64,000 nt of DNA, from the IMG/VR virus record IMGVR_UViG_2563366911_000001; one strand, given 5' to 3'. Under the pieces are notes generated by a model. That model had not been told where the DNA came from. It ran no database searches and saw only the letters and a list, made by a program, of their open reading frames with translations. The position numbers and the translations under genes were made by a program. Origin of the DNA: a virus. Lineage: Duplodnaviria; Heunggongvirae; Uroviricota; Caudoviricetes. This document shows, one piece after another, positions 2,494 through 42,183 of this stretch. Position 1 is the first letter of the stretch. The number at the start of each line of letters is the position of its first letter.

Positions 2494-4017
2494 TTAAATA
2501 CTCCCCGCGTTATACCACGTCCCATTAATGCAATACTGAATTGGCCTTGCCTGAGTTGTATCAATTAATTCATCACGGTTTCCGTTAACTGAACCTGTAA
2601 CGACATAACCTGACCTGTCAGACCAGCCGGGACCATTCCATGTCTGAACAGATGACAGACCGCCCAGGCGAATACCTGTAATAAACCTTGAGTTACATTC
2701 TGCCTGCGTATATGCACCAACATCCCCCGCAGAGGGTTTGCGGGTTGTGGTGTAAAACTCTGACCAGTTAGCTTCAAAGCCATAACCATCACGCGCTGAA
2801 CGATAAAAGATACCGCCGTTCTTATAATTCACGCGGAACTGTACAGCAGGGCAACTCCCCGCATTCATATTGAAGTGGAGGATTAATGTCGATGCGCCAC
2901 TGATATCTGCATCATAAACGCCGCTATTCCAGTTCCAGCCAACAGCTTTATCATTTGCAACCCTGCTTCCTGTTTGCCCTAAAGCAAATGCAGGCTGCTG
3001 GTTTTTCGTGTTGTAGTCTCTTCGCCAGCCAGGAGCATAAGCATCACCATGATTAATATAAGTGAATTGAGCGTTAGTAATTCCGCCACCGCTGGACGTG
3101 CTCGGCGTAGTAACGCGTATGGTCATTGCGCCGCGAGTGCCAATAACTTCCACCACAGCACCTGCAAGACAAATATTTCCGCAACCTGTATCTGTAATGA
3201 CCTTATTATTTGCATAAGCCCATGAGCCTTTGCACATCCAGTAAGGATGGTTAAATGCTCCCTGACTCTCCAGCCACGAAATAAATTGCGCGGTTGTCCA
3301 GACCTGACTATCGCCACCAATATTCAGCCATGCGCTATATGCGCGGCAGGCACCAATATTTTTGGTGAAGGTATCTTTTCCCGGAATATCTGCGCCGTTC
3401 TGGTTTTTCTGTAATGCTCCTGCGGCTAATTCTACAGTTTGCTCAAGATTTAAATCTGCCGCCGTTAGCTCAATATTTTTAGAACCGTCAAACGAGACAC
3501 CGTTGATAGTACACGCCGTCTGCAATTTGGTCGCTGTAGCCGCATTACCAGAGGTGTCCTGATTCCCTTTGGTATTAACGCCGGGAACGGAATCTTTTGA
3601 CGTATAGATCTGTGCCCATTCGGACCATGCCGCAGCAGTGCTATCTCTTTTGGATCGAATGAAAGCTGGTGCATGAGCGCCATTTGTGCCACTCCAGCCA
3701 ATGAGCAACTCGCCTTCACCAGTGGATGCAGCTCCCTTCAGGTGAAGTACATTCCCGTAAGTCGTCGGATAACCATTGTTGTATGCCTCATACATCTGCA
3801 ATCCAGTAGCAGCACCTTGCGTTGTACCGGTAAGCGCAGTAACGCGTCCTCTAGACGTAATTGTTGGTATCGAAATGTTCGTAGAACCATCGAATCTGAC
3901 GCCATTAATGTTTATGGCTGTTTTTAATTTCGTCGCGGTGTCGGCGTTCCCTGTCAGCGCCCCGGTGATCCCGCCGTTAAAAGTCTGGCGTGCACTCCAT
4001 GTGTTAGCCGTGCTCAA
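2494..4017 (-). CDS. Alternative tail fibre variable part (Sv'-like), TTG start as drawn
   Basis: 507 aa; same N-terminal 34 aa as Sv, divergent receptor-binding end. Confidence 0.8.
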   Translation of the reverse strand: MSTANTWSARQTFNGGITGALTGNADTATKLKTAININGVRFDGSTNISIPTITSRGRVTALTGTTQGAATGLQMYEAYNNGYPTTYGNVLHLKGAASTGEGELLIGWSGTNGAHAPAFIRSKRDSTAAAWSEWAQIYTSKDSVPGVNTKGNQDTSGNAATATKLQTACTINGVSFDGSKNIELTAADLNLEQTVELAAGALQKNQNGADIPGKDTFTKNIGACRAYSAWLNIGGDSQVWTTAQFISWLESQGAFNHPYWMCKGSWAYANNKVITDTGCGNICLAGAVVEVIGTRGAMTIRVTTPSTSSGGGITNAQFTYINHGDAYAPGWRRDYNTKNQQPAFALGQTGSRVANDKAVGWNWNSGVYDADISGASTLILHFNMNAGSCPAVQFRVNYKNGGIFYRSARDGYGFEANWSEFYTTTRKPSAGDVGAYTQAECNSRFITGIRLGGLSSVQTWNGPGWSDRSGYVVTGSVNGNRDELIDTTQARPIQYCINGTWYNAGSI

Positions 4018-35843: not shown

Positions 35844-36044
35844 TTATCTGCTGCCCGGCATTCTCTGTTTAAGCACAACCATTTCCTGACGGCATAACAC
35901 AGCAATAGCAGTCCTGGCTCCAATTTGCTTACCAACCAGGTATTGCTTTACCTCGCGGCGACTCACGCCATCAAGAAGCATCTTTAACGCTTCACGGGAC
36001 AATTTGTTGTATTTGCGTGCCATTAATCTACTCCGCAGAACCAT
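35844..36044 (-). CDS. Small basic protein
   Basis: 66 aa. Confidence 0.35.
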
Positions 36045-36408
36045 ACAATCTACGCAACGTGTCGGCGACAGAAGATACAGATATCTCGCCAGTCGCAGCG
36101 CCTACAGTAAGGTCTGCCAGTTCAGGTGAATCAAATACCTGCACCCCGTTACGGCGTAGAAATAGCAGCGCGCTGTTTAGCGCGGTACGCTTATTGGCAT
36201 CATTGAATATATGCCCTCTCGCTGTAGCCACCAGGTAGGTGGCGGAGACTTCGAAAAGGTCGGTGATCTCTTCGTAGGCAACTCTGGCCTGAACTCTCCC
36301 GATAATGGCCTCTGCCCTGCCCGGATCTGACATGCCAGGCAGGCCGCCGTAGCGGCTTATATTCGCATCATGAAGCGCAATAAGTTCTTCCGGTGATATA
36401 TGCCTCAT
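36028..36408 (-). CDS. doc: Doc toxin (Fic-fold EF-Tu kinase)
   Basis: 126 aa with Fic motif HIFNDANKR. Confidence 0.9.
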
Positions 36409-36629
36409 TATCGGTTAACCAGTTCCTTGTTGGTGGAGTCCAGGGTGTCAAACAGGGATGCAAATTCAGCATCCAGCGCCGCTTTTTTGTAGGCTTCGAA
36501 AGTAGCCTTGCTGACAATTACTGCTGGCTCACGGCCTCTGCGGGTGATTTCAACCTCTTCCCCGGCTTCAACATTGTTGAGCACTTCAGAAAGGTTGCCG
36601 CGCGCGGTACGGAAGTTAATGGATTGCAT
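36408..36629 (-). CDS. phd: Phd antitoxin
   Basis: 73 aa from [16 protein letters not shown], coupled to doc. Confidence 0.9.
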
Positions 36630-36701
36630 AAACACCTCGTGTACTCGTTATGTGTACACAATTATAAACCTCACAGGCATAAAGCACCAGCCCTTTGCAG
36701 C

Positions 36702-37091
36702 TTAAATAACCGGACAATCATCAAACTCCCCACTTCGGGCATCATTGATGACATGAGTGATCACACCAAAAACAGCATTACTGCCCGTGCATCCATCGTC
36801 ATCTACTGGTAACGCCTCTTTCTTCCCGGTGCTTAAATCCTCCAGGTGCTGGCGCGGATACTTCCTGTATCTCTTTATGCGATATTCACCCTCCATAGCG
36901 CACACAAGCAGCGAACCATCAACTGGAGTAAGCGAAGAATCAACCACCAGCAAAGCACCCTGCAATATTCCCTCACGGTGATGGCTATCAGCTGCCCGCA
37001 TGAAGTAGGTTGCTGATGGATGTCTAATTATCTGCTGATCAAGAGAAATTCGGCTTTCAACATAATCCGCCGCAGGAGAAGGGAAACCCAT
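36702..37091 (-). CDS. humD: UmuD-like S24 peptidase (HumD)
   Basis: 129 aa, LexA/UmuD C-terminal fold; LexA box upstream. Confidence 0.8.
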   Translation of the reverse strand: MGFPSPAADYVESRISLDQQIIRHPSATYFMRAADSHHREGILQGALLVVDSSLTPVDGSLLVCAMEGEYRIKRYRKYPRQHLEDLSTGKKEALPVDDDGCTGSNAVFGVITHVINDARSGEFDDCPVI

Positions 37092-37109
37092 AGCGTTTTA
37101 CCTCAAAAA

Positions 37110-37129
37110 TACTGTTTATCTGTACAGTA
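37110..37129. promoter_or_regulatory. LexA (SOS) box upstream of humD
   Basis: tACTGTttatctgtACAGta, CTGT-N8-ACAG. Confidence 0.75.
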
Positions 37130-37265
37130 TACATTAAAGAAGCACCTTTGGTGCAAACGCGTTATGTACATCAACCACCGCTGATGATTTTTGTGCGCTT
37201 TGCTACTATTCATCACCGCGGGATCAGCGTAACCTCGTTGCCAATCAGTTAATAAGGAATTAGCT

Positions 37266-37850
37266 ATGCCTAATCGCATTCCTCTCGATCCTGTATTGCC
37301 CAAAAATTTTGACTGCACTCCTAACGAGAAACGCTCTAAAGCTCAGCTGGACGCCTGGTGGGACCATCCATATGGGGTTACACAACCTGACGGGAAAATT
37401 GTAGTTTATTGTCTGAATGGTGGGGCGTGGGACCGTCCATCCGTGCTTTGTTTGGCAGATAACTATGATGAAGCCTGTGAACTTGCCGAAAGACAGCAGG
37501 CAAGCTGGGTAAAAACACGGTCTGAACCGACATTCATGTTTTCAAAAGAACCGCCATTTATACTGGCGAGGATGCCGCAGCGACCGGATCATCAACAAGA
37601 AATTGTTGCTGAATTTTCCTCAAGGGATGAGATGAATCTCTTCTCATTAAAGCAGGAAGAAAGGGATCGCGTCGAAGTGTCTCCAACTCTCGACCACAAC
37701 CGGATGAACCTGGCCCAGCTCGCCTGGTACAGCAAAGAATTAGAGATGTCTATTTCCCGGCTTGAAAACGAAAAAGCCGCTATCCAAGTCCAGCACGAAG
37801 TAGTTCTGAACCGGATTAGAGAAATGCAAAACGATAACAGGGGATTTTGA
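37266..37850 (+). CDS. Hypothetical protein
   Basis: 194 aa, divergent from humD. Confidence 0.5.
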   Translation: MPNRIPLDPVLPKNFDCTPNEKRSKAQLDAWWDHPYGVTQPDGKIVVYCLNGGAWDRPSVLCLADNYDEACELAERQQASWVKTRSEPTFMFSKEPPFILARMPQRPDHQQEIVAEFSSRDEMNLFSLKQEERDRVEVSPTLDHNRMNLAQLAWYSKELEMSISRLENEKAAIQVQHEVVLNRIREMQNDNRGF

Positions 37851-38207
37851 ATGGCTAAAATCGAGTACCATCGCGATCGCGGTAATTACCTGGAAATATA
37901 CGATCATGAATCTCTTAACGATATCAACGATGCGTTATATGAATACTGTGAAAAAACGAGCATCACAGATGCACCTGATGCATTTGTCGAGCTGCCGGTA
38001 TATCTCCGCGACATCTATGCAATACGAACACCGCCCGTATCGGTGATTCACATTGGCTATGTCCGCCTGTCCATCAAAGAAGATGAAGATCGTTATATCG
38101 TGCGCCACTATACATTGGACAGAAAAGAACTTCCTAATGAATGGAACATGAGTAATTTCTACAACGGTGAATATGGCTTAAAATCCGCTAATAATTTACG
38201 GTCATAA
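37851..38207 (+). CDS. Hypothetical protein
   Basis: 118 aa, start abuts the upstream stop. Confidence 0.5.
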   Translation: MAKIEYHRDRGNYLEIYDHESLNDINDALYEYCEKTSITDAPDAFVELPVYLRDIYAIRTPPVSVIHIGYVRLSIKEDEDRYIVRHYTLDRKELPNEWNMSNFYNGEYGLKSANNLRS

Positions 38208-39069
38208 TCTATACAGGCATGTATAACAACAATGAGCCTATTAGCTGTCAACAACGTTATTTTCTCAAATAAGAAAAAGCAGAAAACAAATTGTTTAAGG
38301 TCACAAATTGTGGCCTTGATGGAGGAGGGAGGCTTATTGGCTATGGCTAAAAATCAAATTAGACACTTCATGTTGCTGTAGCTCATCAAGATCCGAGGCC
38401 ACAAAACCTTTTCCGAAAAACTTCACAAGTAACTCACTAGCCGCATCATTGTCACCTATTACACGAAAGTCATACGGCAACGTCGCAAGCTGACGATGTA
38501 ATCCTGCTGAGAAAGTCGAATCTAACAGCGCCCAGAATTCCCACCGCAGGATAATACTCGCCTCTTAATACTGTATATATGTTGTTACGATATGTTTTTC
38601 TGTCTCTAAAAAAAGATGTTAATAGAATGCTAACCATTGAAGGGGATAAAAATATACAATTCCAACAAACGTTATTTTTAACAATTTTTTTCTTTGCGTT
38701 GACTTTCCCGGACACCTTGTCTGACCGAAGGTGCGCGAAAGCCACTTTTTCCTTCCTGAGTTATCCACAAAGTTATGCACTTGCAAGAGGGCCATTTTCT
38801 ACATATTGTGGTGGCTAACAGATGAAATGAATGTAGATTAATTGAAGATAAGGAGAAAATTTGAGATGCAATCATGACGTTAATAGATAGGGTCTGCATT
38901 ACAGACCCCACCCGCATCAAGGAATTAGCCGTTCCCTGATGTTTTTCCGAAAACATGTGCCGTAAGCTCACGTTAACGACTTTCATTCACCGAATCCAAC
39001 TATATAGGGGTTGGGTTTCTACGTCAACGTGAGCAAGTGCACCTTTACATTTGACAAGGAACCACCTGA

Positions 39070-39207
39070 ATGAACGCTTTTTTTCAGTTCCTGAGTGCAT
39101 TTTTAGATGCGCCTATTATTAGCCAGATTCTGGCTATTATCCTCATCATCGTTTTGATTTTGCTTTTAAGGTCAGTAAAAGATGGAATTATGCACTGGCT
39201 TACTTAA
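39070..39207 (+). CDS. 45-aa hydrophobic peptide (type I toxin-like)
   Basis: MNAFFQFLSAFLDAPIISQILAIILIIVLILLLRSVKDGIMHWLT, below the ORF-track cutoff. Confidence 0.4.
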   Translation: MNAFFQFLSAFLDAPIISQILAIILIIVLILLLRSVKDGIMHWLT

Positions 39208-39282
39208 TGTTTCAGTGAAACATTAAAATCTCCTTGATGTGGAAACAATCATTTTCTGTATGTGCTGGTGGGCACCTGTAGT

Positions 39283-39645
39283 TCAGCTTTCGTTGACATT
39301 TAACTTCGTCTTTGCTTTCTCCACCAGCAACTTCCAGATGCCTATTTCATTAGCAGCCGCCTTGATGGCGGCATAAAAAGCATCTTGCTGATCGTAACGC
39401 TGGATCTGTTTTTTCAGTTTTGCCTCCACCAATTTAATTTCATTACGTGCTTTCTGAAGCCGCATCACCGCCCGGTTACGTCTGTTCTTGTATAGCGTGT
39501 TAATCTCTGACAATTGTTTTAATTTGCCAGCCTGACTGCGGATTATCGCCTCCCTGGCTTCTGCCGTGCGTCTCATCTGATCTCTTAAGAGTTCACCGTT
39601 TTCGATAATTCTTTCAAGGTGTTTGATGTGATCTGCAACTCTCAT
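39283..39645 (-). CDS. Coiled-coil protein
   Basis: 120 aa. Confidence 0.45.
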   Translation of the reverse strand: MRVADHIKHLERIIENGELLRDQMRRTAEAREAIIRSQAGKLKQLSEINTLYKNRRNRAVMRLQKARNEIKLVEAKLKKQIQRYDQQDAFYAAIKAAANEIGIWKLLVEKAKTKLNVNES

Positions 39646-40316
39646 ACTTCACCCTCGCTTGTATCACCAGCGTCCACCAACGACAATAAAGCCCTGGCCA
39701 TCTTATGAACCAACAGTGCATCAATAATGCCAAGCGTATGCCCCGGCTTAATGTTTAATGCCGCCTCAAGGTGACACCTTTCCAGGTCACTTTTCTCGGC
39801 TTGTTTATGATGATCTGGCGTAATAACGTCGCCCAAAACACGGCTAATTCTTTCTCGTAATTGCTGGGTGCCAGCACACTTGATCGCTGTATCGTGGAGA
39901 CGGTTAACCAGTTCGCGATAAACATGCGGCTTAATGCGGATACGTTCACCGGTGACGCCCTTTCCTGGCGCTGGCACCGAACTATCCGGAATATCCGGAT
40001 AGTTGCCAGCCTCGTAAGCTACCCGCAGCCAGTGCATGAATGTTTCAGTGGACACACAACCACAGTCCACATCGATTTTTCCGCGTTGCTGTTCCAGCCA
40101 CTGCTCAAAATTCAATCTACACGTATTACTTTCATGTTGCTCTTTTTGTCTCAAGGCCAGCACCTGTTGGGCCAGTTCCAGAACGATACCGGGTGACGCT
40201 AACCTCTCAAATTCCAATAAATAGTTTGCGTCAGGATGACAAGTAGCCTCGCCTGCAAAAAATACCAATTGCTGTAAGTATGCTGTCGTTAGAGTAGTCA
40301 TTTCTTTTTGCGCCAT
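39642..40316 (-). CDS. Hypothetical protein
   Basis: 224 aa, ATGA-coupled. Confidence 0.5.
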   Translation of the reverse strand: MAQKEMTTLTTAYLQQLVFFAGEATCHPDANYLLEFERLASPGIVLELAQQVLALRQKEQHESNTCRLNFEQWLEQQRGKIDVDCGCVSTETFMHWLRVAYEAGNYPDIPDSSVPAPGKGVTGERIRIKPHVYRELVNRLHDTAIKCAGTQQLRERISRVLGDVITPDHHKQAEKSDLERCHLEAALNIKPGHTLGIIDALLVHKMARALLSLVDAGDTSEGEV

Positions 40317-40672
40317 TTCTTTTCACATTCCTTAGTCCATTTTTCAATGTTCATTTTGGCAATATCGGTCATTCCATCACCTAAGAAATACTTTCTCCGG
40401 TATGTCTTGCACTTAAACCACACTACAACAGCCACCAGCCAGAAAATAAAAGGCCATACAGCAATACCAACGACAGCCGCGATAAAGCCCAATATCCATA
40501 AATGAAGCTCTCCAACTTCTGTTTCCGGCAATATTCTTAAAGAATTAAACAGCAGGCTGAACGAATGGTCGTATGCATTGGCAGTATAAGACATGCAATC
40601 CATATAATTAAAGTCATAGCCTGCGGCTGCCGCCCATAATGGGCGGTCAAGAAAATGTTTTAGTGTCATCAT
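40298..40672 (-). CDS. Membrane protein with basic tail
   Basis: 124 aa, two TM segments. Confidence 0.5.
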   Translation of the reverse strand: MMTLKHFLDRPLWAAAAGYDFNYMDCMSYTANAYDHSFSLLFNSLRILPETEVGELHLWILGFIAAVVGIAVWPFIFWLVAVVVWFKCKTYRRKYFLGDGMTDIAKMNIEKWTKECEKKWRKKK

Positions 40673-40678
40673 ATAAAT

Positions 40679-40972
40679 TTAAGGTTCAGACCAGTTATCT
40701 TCAATAGCAATGCTTAATCTTTGTAGCCATTCTGCTAATTTCAGCATTGCTTCTCTTTCGCTTAAACCACGAGGAAAATCATCAAGCGAAATTGTTGGCT
40801 TGAATCCACCGTAATTATCCATTTCAACTGTCAGATTTTGTTCCAGCACGGTATTTCTTACGCGGCTATTGTGCCGGAGCAAATATACTGAGCGTGATTT
40901 ATTGGTTTTGTGGTCTAGCTTATATTCGGTAAGTATCATCTGGCTTTTGCCATGACTATTACCTCTCCACAT
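40679..40972 (-). CDS. Hypothetical protein
   Basis: 97 aa from MWRGNSHG with SD gagg. Confidence 0.45.
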   Translation of the reverse strand: MWRGNSHGKSQMILTEYKLDHKTNKSRSVYLLRHNSRVRNTVLEQNLTVEMDNYGGFKPTISLDDFPRGLSEREAMLKLAEWLQRLSIAIEDNWSEP

Positions 40973-40979
40973 ACTTACC

Positions 40980-41102
40980 TCACTTAATAAAACAACTCCA
41001 TGCGTAGTTGATGATTTTTTCCCACGCAATATAAATCTGCACTCCGGCAGTAAAACCAAAGCCAACAATTGCTGAAAAAATCAAAACATTTACTTTTGAC
41101 AT
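40980..41102 (-). CDS. 40-aa membrane microprotein
   Basis: MSKVNVLIFSAIVGFGFTAGVQIYIAWEKIINYAWSCFIK; stop 7 nt before the next start. Confidence 0.35.
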   Translation of the reverse strand: MSKVNVLIFSAIVGFGFTAGVQIYIAWEKIINYAWSCFIK

Positions 41103-41150
41103 TATAAATTTTCTCTCGGTGTCGTAGGTGATAGCACCATAATTGATAAT

Positions 41151-41384
41151 TTAGTGAGTTAGCAGTTCCATTTTTTTGATGATTTCCGCATGAGCATCAT
41201 CGTTATCAACACTTAGCTCGTTTAATGCTTCTCGCACTACATCAACTTCTTCAGGCTGAAAGAAGTCGTCGCGGTAATCACCAAATAGAACCGAAACCAG
41301 CCTGCCACCAGCAACATCAAGATTGGCGCTAACAGGTGGCTCTTTGCCATCCTCAAATTCGACTACAAAAGTTATTTTTCCCAT
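41151..41384 (-). CDS. Small acidic protein
   Basis: 77 aa from MGKITFVV. Confidence 0.45.
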   Translation of the reverse strand: MGKITFVVEFEDGKEPPVSANLDVAGGRLVSVLFGDYRDDFFQPEEVDVVREALNELSVDNDDAHAEIIKKMELLTH

Positions 41385-41386
41385 CG

Positions 41387-41470
41387 TTACCACCAGCGAC
41401 AAATTGAATACAAACCCAGTGCTGCCGCCATCACAATTCCTACCGTGGTGAATGCTTCAGGCCAGCTCAT
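41387..41470 (-). CDS. 27-aa membrane microprotein
   Basis: MSWPEAFTTVGIVMAAALGLYSICRWW; ATGA overlap with the upstream stop. Confidence 0.35.
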   Translation of the reverse strand: MSWPEAFTTVGIVMAAALGLYSICRWW

Positions 41471-42183
41471 TGATTCACCTCCTGCGGCGGTTCTGGTAGC
41501 GGCATCCAGTGTGACGGTTTCCACGACGCACCAGGAATTATCCACCCATCATTAGCGTCAGGATGCCCGGGGATGTAAGTAGCCCATTTCATTCGCCAGT
41601 CACCTTTCCTGTCAAACTCCACGGCAACAAGAACGGCTGTTTTGGTATTCGGCATTCGCTCACTACAGCTTATCCAACCATCCGGAGTTGCCGGAGAGTT
41701 GCCCGATAGCTGGTTCAACTTGTAAGTTTGGCTTACAGGTTCGGCACCATGAAGCATGGCGTCGCTCCGCTCTATGCCATCCAGCGCGATTCGCAGTGCC
41801 TGAATTGTGGTAGAGCTATCGTTTGGGGCTATTCCATATCGCTCGAATACAGCTAAATGGTTGCGCATAATCTCAGGCGTAAGCTCTTTGTAAGCATAAG
41901 CAAGAGGCTCTGATGCATTATCCGGCACAACCGACGCAGGCGCGGCAGCATAAACAGGAATAACGTCCGCTTGCTCTTTATTGCTTTCATCCGTTAAAGA
42001 CCAGAATAATTTCCCGGCCGGATGTTTGAAAATATAAGCAACTGGATCTGCTTCCAGCGATGCCAGCGCAATTCGTGCCAGTTCTTCCGCTTCTTCTGCT
42101 GGCAGTACAACGTTGCTACCAGGTCCGTATGTTTCGCGCCACTGCTTGATTGTCAGTAGTCGCTCTTTGGTAATAGTGATCAT
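41467..42183 (-). CDS. DUF551-type prophage protein
   Basis: C-terminal ...SHWMPLPEPP; N-terminus paralogous to 43058-43420. Confidence 0.55.
   Translation of the reverse strand: MITITKERLLTIKQWRETYGPGSNVVLPAEEAEELARIALASLEADPVAYIFKHPAGKLFWSLTDESNKEQADVIPVYAAAPASVVPDNASEPLAYAYKELTPEIMRNHLAVFERYGIAPNDSSTTIQALRIALDGIERSDAMLHGAEPVSQTYKLNQLSGNSPATPDGWISCSERMPNTKTAVLVAVEFDRKGDWRMKWATYIPGHPDANDGWIIPGASWKPSHWMPLPEPPQEVNQ

Follow-up and report, generated by a model that had tools for sequence, protein, structure and literature searches.

Does the apparently empty stretch between two genes of a P1-like phage-plasmid hold a membrane peptide whose synthesis is controlled by an antisense RNA? The question is raised by a 64,000-nucleotide (nt) stretch of DNA, the virus record IMGVR_UViG_2563366911_000001 (hereafter the window), which comes from a P1/P7-like phage-plasmid. 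Between the stop codon of a 118-amino-acid (aa) gene (upf93.6) at 38207 and the stop codon of pmgV at 39283, the window has a 1.1-kilobase (kb) gap, about 2.4 kb from phd. An initial annotation of this gap had described a 45-aa hydrophobic peptide gene behind a structured leader and likened it to type I toxin modules. Here we describe the peptide gene, a host-derived promoter that faces it and a predicted RNA on the opposite strand of its leader, which may together form a two-strand module of the P1 family, and we weigh this reading against three others.

A probable gene for a single-pass membrane peptide

Relatives of the locus over 38700-39300 form three groups only, with identities to the window of about 99%, about 95-97% (the group of P1) and about 77%. 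We refer to the group about 77% identical in DNA as the divergent clade, and conservation counts at this locus were taken over 80 related loci. The 45-aa open reading frame (ORF) named in the initial annotation is indeed open, with AAGGA upstream of it (Table 1). Its single helix and tail were recovered as a hydropathic transmembrane helix at residues ~16-33, which follows an amphipathic N-terminus and precedes a basic and bulky C-terminal tail, and the gap was rightly described as free of convincing long ORFs; those within it are at most 102 aa long.

The corresponding ORF of the divergent clade has the identical start and stop and the product MIVFFQFLSAFLNAPVLSQVLAIVFIVVLIWFFKSVINRGVRWLI, although 24% of the positions differ between the two (34 nucleotide differences). 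These differences are distributed over the three codon positions as 13, 8 and 13 overall and as 9, 1 and 8 in the hydrophobic core (codons 4-33), where so few second-position changes arose in only 0.23% of random placements (permutation P = 0.0023). The hydrophobicity of the transmembrane segment is conserved, with a mean Kyte-Doolittle hydropathy over residues 16-33 of 3.36 in the window and 2.83 in the divergent clade. The ten C-terminal residues of the window peptide, VKDGIMHWLT, include K, D, H and W, and the divergent clade ends in INRGVRWLI. A 45-aa product with these termini is kept in at least 74 of the 80 related loci, and no other reading frame at the ORF is conserved. The P1 and P7 references lack an annotation of this plus-strand ORF; PGAP calls it in some plasmids (WP_000123562.1, and a 49-aa variant, WP_162883679.1). 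The 45-aa ORF is thus probably a real gene for a single-pass membrane peptide.

Several further features were observed in and near the ORF. Some natural variants differ in the C-terminal tail only, by an IS1 insertion after about codon 40, by a +1 frameshift that gives 49 aa, or by other frameshifts and truncations; they are found in locus L084 at 2721-3549 (NZ_CP145648.1), in proteins P0001-P0004 and in locus L004 at 1721-1870, and the antisense promoter described below is intact in all of them. Inside the ORF, the hairpin GTGCATTTTTAGATGCGC (39095-39112, plus strand, codons 9-15) is kept in all clades with its sole change in the loop, and a terminator scan flags it as terminator-like. A second hydrophobic ORF of 45 aa, with a GTG start, lies at 39239-39376 on the plus strand, antisense to the 3' end of pmgV; it occurs in P1, is missing from the divergent clade and is probably not a gene.

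A predicted host-derived promoter facing the peptide gene

Upstream of the leader, the window carries a homologue of the Escherichia coli nrdA promoter region. Many E. coli chromosomes have the segment 38735-38799, with 100% identity, just upstream of nrdA, and a match was found in all 5426 complete E. coli genomes. The alignment to a K-12-type chromosome (L062) spans 38700 to the -10 hexamer and then ends, phage sequence taking the place of nrdA sequence downstream of the -10. The NrdR boxes and the nrdA leader lie downstream of the nrdA -10, in the part that is replaced here.

The predicted hexamers and their spacer are in register with the -35 and -10 assigned upstream of E. coli nrdA (-10 TATCTT), and the -10 of the divergent clade reads TACTGT. 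From this arrangement we infer that the peptide mRNA would start near 38818. In L062, a start 7 nt after the assigned nrdA -10 falls about 107 nt before the nrdA ATG, which we take to agree with the mapped, published start of nrdA. Downstream of the promoter, the 45-aa ORF is the sole conserved ORF. The promoter had also been noticed in P1 itself: GenBank entry M95666 (Lehnherr 1993) marks an 'nrdA-like promoter' together with a dnaA box on the P1 strand that corresponds to the plus strand of the window, and the dnaA box is annotated in the P1 reference as well.

P1 and the divergent clade have shorter or more diverged versions of the nrdA promoter segment. Such a distribution suggests one of two histories: a host promoter was captured and then diverged, or the lineage of the window repeatedly underwent gene conversion with the chromosome of its host.

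A predicted antisense RNA from within the leader

The best σ70-like site in 38200-39400 lies within the leader on the minus strand. It matches the consensus at 10 of 12 positions, its hexamers are identical in all 80 related loci, and it coincides with 'PupfN', a promoter predicted in the P1 reference. The site is situated 40-70 nt upstream of the start codon of the peptide and is oriented away from it.

An RNA started there would be about 110 nt long and is predicted to fold into three stem-loops (Table 1), the third of which (38913-38885) is terminator-like and is followed by UAUCUAUU. The minus strand of 38878-38994 has a minimum free energy of -43.5 kcal/mol (z = -5.15), which none of 200 shuffles equalled, in comparison with -29.1 kcal/mol (z = -2.97) for the same interval on the plus strand. 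The fold is stronger on the minus strand because three helices have G·U pairs that become A·C mismatches on the plus strand. The three-hairpin fold recurs in P1 and in the divergent clade: 98% of the cells of the alignment pair, one compensatory change (U-A to C-G) is found in the terminator stem, and the differences of the divergent clade fall in the linkers and in the loop of the second stem-loop (CGGCUAA to CUGUGAA), the stem of which is kept.

The predicted RNA is fully complementary to the mRNA at positions ~+65 to +175, a stretch upstream of the ribosome site of the peptide and just downstream of an AAGGAG motif with a mini-ORF (38851-38890). Complements of the leader elsewhere in the 64-kb window amount to a single 12-mer match at chance level.

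The leader, its inverted repeats and the annotated minus-strand ORFs

The predicted leader begins with a variable spacer, in which the divergent clade has a 19-nt insertion, followed by a conserved block at 38848-39034. Compared with the divergent clade, the leader is more conserved than the ORF, with about 13% differences in 38848-38947 and 3 differences in the 86 nt of 38948-39033, a block within which lie the antisense promoter and the initial ~45 nt of the predicted antisense RNA. The peptide encoded by the mini-ORF is unconstrained across the clades (MRCNHDVNR, MRCNHDINR and MRCIYEVNR); at most, we infer that 38851-38890 might act as a leader ORF or as a ribosome loading site.

The initial annotation had located the control element in nested inverted repeats of the mRNA leader. 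The first of these repeats exists with its right arm at 39022 as described, although the left arm lies at 38966 and not at 38962. A repeat of equal quality appeared in 5 of 300 dinucleotide shuffles of 38700-39300, so it is rarer than expected by chance. Its single mismatch is A·C on the plus strand and G·U on the minus strand; the antisense promoter has its -35 in the right arm, and the left arm falls within the predicted antisense RNA. Nested inside it is the hairpin AATCCAAC/GTTGGGTT at 38993-39017. The other quoted hairpin, gatgttttt/aaaacatg, is present at 38939-38958, but it is upstream of the repeat instead of nested in it and is not kept in relatives. RNA folding and covariation had been proposed as checks: over ~38850-39250 the fold beats shuffles on both strands (z = -2.9 on the plus and -4.6 on the minus strand), and the covariation is not significant. 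The better-supported RNA is the one on the strand opposite to that on which the control element had been placed.

Two pairings that would involve the start of the peptide gene were rejected. Sequestration of the Shine-Dalgarno sequence (AGGAAC with GUUCCU) is seen in the fold of the window and is kept neither in P1 nor in the divergent clade, and an 8-nt pairing of 38982-38989 with the start-codon region is lost in P1.

The leader block also contains small ORFs on both strands. A 21-aa plus-strand ORF (38875-38940) was rejected as coding, as the alignment counts one synonymous change and six amino-acid changes, and a 25-aa plus-strand ORF (38955-39032) is uninformative because the surrounding block is nearly invariant. 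On the minus strand, the P1 reference (NC_005856) fills the gap with three small ORFs, upfM, upfN and upfO, and predicted promoters, and the P7 reference (NC_050152) lists upf91.3-91.7. UpfM matches phrog_31823, a family that may be made up only of P1-like copies. The upfN-type ORF is 102, 65 and 42 aa long in the three lineages and its start also shifts; all four nucleotide differences in 38848-38910 change an amino acid in its frame, as read from the translations against the alignment; and in the divergent clade upfM is broken and the -10 of P1 upfM is lost. Since neither the plus-strand nor the minus-strand ORFs behave as coding sequence, the block is non-coding and the minus-strand genes of the references are probably spurious. 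We therefore regard upfM, upfN and upfO of P1 and upf91.3-91.7 of P7, in the minus-strand regions 38678-39100 of the window and 2425-2869 of locus L001, as probable annotation artefacts.

Table 1. Features of the locus and of flanking genes, in coordinates of the window; promoters, transcripts and their ends are predictions.
Feature	Position	Strand	Remarks
phd	36408-36635	-	
humD	36702-37091	-	
Homologue of the E. coli nrdA promoter region (ypaB/nrdA upstream)	38700-38805	+	~100 nt, 98-100% identical
DnaA boxes TTATCCACA and TTATGCACT	38761-38769 and 38773-38781	+	invariant in three clades
Predicted σ70 promoter of the peptide mRNA	38783-38811	+	-35 TTGCAA (38783-38788), 17-nt spacer, -10 TATTGT (38806-38811)
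Predicted 5' leader of the peptide mRNA	38818-39069	+	~250 nt; from promoter and ORF start
Shine-Dalgarno-like AAGGAG with tiny ORF	38851-38856; TTG 38861 to TAG 38890	+	9 codons, or ATG 38866 with 1-3 codons; conserved in all clades
Predicted antisense RNA	38882-38992	-	~110 nt; stem-loops 38979-38947, 38941-38915, 38913-38885; both ends predicted
Most conserved block of the locus	38948-39033		3 differences in 86 nt to the divergent clade
13-nt inverted repeat GCTCACGTTAACG / CGTCAACGTGAGC	38966-38978 / 39022-39034		92% complementary, 43 nt between arms
Predicted σ70 promoter of the antisense RNA	38999-39027	-	-35 TTGACG (39027-39022), 17 nt, -10 TATAGT (39004-38999)
Shine-Dalgarno AAGGA	39058-39062	+	7 nt before ATG; GAGGA at the equivalent place in the divergent clade
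45-aa ORF MNAFFQFLSAFLDAPIISQILAIILIIVLILLLRSVKDGIMHWLT	39070-39207	+	one transmembrane helix, residues ~16-33
pmgV	39283-39645	-	

Genomic context and distribution

Matches to the 1.1-kb gap occur in 329 plasmid records; the plasmids are for the most part non-mobilizable, belong to Escherichia, Salmonella and Shigella, and typically measure 90-100 kb among the matches listed. Phages P1, P7 and SJ46 match the gap as well. The module is carried by 216 of the 5426 complete E. coli genomes, nearly always on a plasmid and on P1-like elements only. It was not found in 185,579 species-representative genomes searched with peptide patterns and a 23-mer of the leader, and a search for further relatives for covariation in viral contigs, in metagenome contigs and, by tblastn, in plasmids returned the same three clades only. 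The peptide itself, searched by words in 5.8 billion proteins and by HMMER in 1.84 billion representatives, gave only P1-like copies and frameshifted or truncated variants.

On the left side, two plus-strand genes that match P7 upf94.2 and upf93.6 (37266-38207) end at 38207. The hot gene, for a homologue of the theta subunit of DNA polymerase III, is absent from the P7-like lineage of the window, where these two genes replace it; in P1 and in the divergent clade hot adjoins the module (L001 2138-2401, L003 1013-1252). The module is intact in a lineage without the downstream minus-strand hot, and it is therefore not there to serve hot. Pfam and PADLOC gave no informative result for the neighbouring genes.

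The left part of the gap (38253-38546) matches only some other P1-like phages (CMS-2020a, PhiR41_1 and Cyrano, 87-90% identity) and has a 48-aa minus-strand ORF (38334-38480) that resembles a gene fragment. In P7, IS903 is inserted near window position 38462. At 38569-38588, TACTGTATATATGTTGTTAC contains the left half of a LexA box without mismatch (TACTGTATAT), but the right half, ACAG, is missing; this may be the remnant of an SOS box, in a part of the gap that is absent from P1.

A proposed two-strand module and its alternatives

We propose a two-strand module, specific to the P1 family, in which the mRNA of a membrane peptide and an RNA antisense to its leader are related in a type-I-like manner, and we hold this reading tentatively, with slightly less than even confidence. 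Transcription from the nrdA-derived σ70 promoter, which carries the two DnaA boxes, would begin near 38818 and yield an mRNA for the 45-aa peptide, and the minus-strand σ70 promoter within the leader would produce the ~110-nt three-hairpin RNA. This RNA would pair with the middle of the leader and prevent synthesis of the peptide, by analogy with ldrD/rdlD, hok/sok and tisB/istR-1. Repression could proceed by RNase III cleavage of the long duplex, or by a block to ribosome loading at the upstream Shine-Dalgarno sequence and mini-ORF or at a standby region, and interference between the convergent promoters might add another layer. The peptide, if made, would insert in the inner membrane and harm the cell.

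Type I loci typically encode a toxin of at most 70 aa with a transmembrane segment and charged or bulky residues among the last 10 aa, and are flanked by more than 400 nt of intergenic DNA on the upstream side and by more than 250 nt on the other (Fozo et al. 2010, PMC2887945). The peptide, at 45 aa, is in this range in its size, its membrane segment and its C-terminal residues, and the 862 nt of intergenic DNA upstream of the ORF (38208-39069) exceed the 400-nt threshold.

A number of observations weigh against the module. Downstream of the ORF only about 75 nt (39208-39282) separate it from pmgV, below the typical 250 nt. The peptide belongs to no family in Pfam, NCBIfam, PHROGs or PADLOC, a Pfam hmmscan (E <= 10) giving just one irrelevant viral transmembrane protein, and Rfam has nothing meaningful in 36000-42000 (E <= 1) or in 38700-39300 (E <= 10). 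The U-tract of the predicted terminator (UAUCUAUU) is poor, and the terminator scan did not call it. Covariation as good as that of the antisense alignment was obtained in 94 of 500 shuffles, a weakness that we ascribe to there being only six distinct sequences in three clades. In the ORF, 20 of the 27 differing codons are non-synonymous, and the frame would stay open without selection with P = 0.28, so openness alone is weak evidence; the conservation of the leader could reflect a recombination patch in mosaic phage genomes and not selection. The literature that was searched on the P1 transcriptome, small RNAs and type I systems gave nothing relevant to the locus and no expression data. Lytic growth tolerates deletion of the upfM-upfO region (PMC10695390).

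A last point on this side concerns plasmid addiction. The M95666 fragment matches the window across the ORF and the leader. In 1993, Lehnherr et al. reportedly attributed the addiction of the P1 plasmid to phd-doc. With addiction so attributed on a fragment that covers the locus, strong post-segregational killing by the module is unlikely, and its killing effect, if there is any, is probably mild or conditional.

The best surviving alternative, which we place on the unlikely side, is that the ORF and the RNA are both real and do not constitute a toxin-antitoxin pair. The peptide would then be a harmless small membrane protein of the prophage, perhaps an exclusion factor or one that modulates a membrane protein of the host, and the RNA would have its own job, as a trans-acting small RNA or simply in convergent transcription that holds down the captured nrdA promoter. 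Independent support exists for the ORF and for the RNA, no toxin family matches the peptide, and both the reported attribution of addiction to phd-doc alone, on a fragment that covers the locus, and the dispensability of the region for lytic growth are in line with such roles. However, the leader of the sole conserved plus-strand ORF is matched by the RNA with perfect complementarity, so an effect in cis is hard to avoid, and beyond the lone chance-level 12-mer no complement of the leader lies elsewhere in the window; moreover, the peptide looks like a typical type I toxin in its size, hydrophobicity and tail.

We consider it quite unlikely that the ORF is unexpressed, in which case the block would be a cis-acting DNA or regulatory region around the captured host promoter, or a recent recombination patch, and the hydrophobic ORF a by-product of T-rich sequence. 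This would accord with the chance level of the open frame, with the near absence of calls of the ORF in protein databases and with the frameshifted, truncated and IS1-interrupted C-termini, as well as with the mosaic nature of P1-like genomes at this region, which has been termed 'variable region 8' (PMC9603915). It is at odds with the sparing of second codon positions in the transmembrane core, with a Shine-Dalgarno sequence, start and stop that are all kept at 24% divergence, and with the homologue of a bona fide promoter that faces the ORF; also, divergence within the supposed patch is graded from 3.5% to 13% and is not zero.

That the reference annotation is right, and that the gap encodes UpfM, UpfN and UpfO in P1 and Upf91.3-91.7 in P7, on the minus strand and from PupfN and PupfM, we find barely credible in view of the unstable lengths and broken frames of these ORFs, in spite of their presence in both references and the phrog_31823 match.

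Beyond the two-strand module as such, a broader claim, which we judge decidedly unlikely in its full form, is that the P1 family took over the nrdA promoter of its host, DnaA boxes included, and placed under it a new family of membrane-toxin peptide that a cis-antisense RNA holds in check. Production of the toxin would be tied to the DnaA and replication status of the host and not to LexA and SOS, a prophage with a DnaA-dependent plasmid origin would possess a replication-sensing type I module, and upfM, upfN and upfO would be on the wrong strand. 

Few phages have been studied as well as P1, which geneticists use as a standard tool, and in E. coli and Salmonella P1-like phage-plasmids spread resistance genes. 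Should the two-strand module work as proposed, P1 would have a second, RNA-controlled toxin system near phd-doc, a part of its reference annotation would need correction, and the timing of membrane peptide expression would be an example of a mobile element that re-uses a host cell-cycle promoter (nrdA/DnaA). The promoters of the peptide and of the antisense partner, and this partner itself, are now placed to the base, as predictions from sequence alone.

Comparison with known type I systems

The initial annotation had compared the locus with hok/sok, ldr and tisB modules. The type-I-like reading is supported in part: the resemblance holds for the layout of ldrD/rdlD and does not extend to family membership, as no Hok, Ldr, TisB or Rfam family matched.

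Like hok/sok, the locus is on a low-copy plasmid-like replicon and has a membrane peptide of ~50 aa, an antisense RNA predicted to arise from within the leader and an upstream translation signal. It differs in lacking a Hok/Gef domain (PF01848) and a Sok RNA match in Rfam. No conserved mok-like plus-strand frame overlaps the start of the toxin ORF, only the 9-codon mini-ORF lying ~180 nt upstream, and, as read from the sequences, a candidate pairing of the 5' and 3' ends in the window is not kept in the divergent clade.

With tisB/istR-1 and dinQ/agrB the module would share a toxin promoter that has sites for a global regulator of DNA metabolism, and an antisense RNA whose pairing site, in a long leader, is well upstream of the ribosome binding site. 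Here, however, the nrdA promoter copy has DnaA boxes in place of LexA boxes, and the predicted RNA is fully cis-antisense instead of divergent with partial complementarity; the peptide matched neither TisB nor DinQ, and no IstR RNA match was found. The similarity to the E. coli nrdAB promoter comprises both DnaA boxes, the -35, the spacer length and the position of the -10, and stops at the -10.

The closest parallel is ldrD/rdlD, in which the antisense gene is also inside the 5' leader of the toxin, with its 5' end near the start codon and reading away from it. In the K-12 record, the 5' end of rdlD is 49 nt upstream of the ldrD ATG, and the start predicted here at ~38992 is 78 nt from the ATG at 39070. 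In both systems the peptide is small, has a single helix and carries W and basic residues close to its C-terminus, and the two peptides resemble each other locally in L(D/A)APVI(S/A)(Q/G)ILA and (H/N)WL. BLASTP against Ldr gave 8 of 15 identities with E = 0.001 for a single comparison, and hhalign a probability of 8.5%. Before correction for the several families that were looked at, shuffle P values against LdrD were 0.004-0.007 for the window and P1 peptides and 0.03 for the divergent clade, and those against LdrA and LdrB 0.04-0.14. The Ldr domain (PF13940) had no hmmscan match at E <= 10, the ldrA and ldrD loci gave chance matches only by blastn-short, and there was no Rfam match to Rdl. 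The resemblance to Ldr is hence suggestive and non-significant, a lead and not a membership. The peptide is also longer here (45 aa vs 35), as is the predicted RNA (~110 nt vs ~65), and the locus is on a phage-plasmid and not in chromosomal long direct repeats. It is from the ldrD/rdlD topology that we propose a type-I-like control of the 45-aa peptide, and the module would then represent a new family of a known kind of system.

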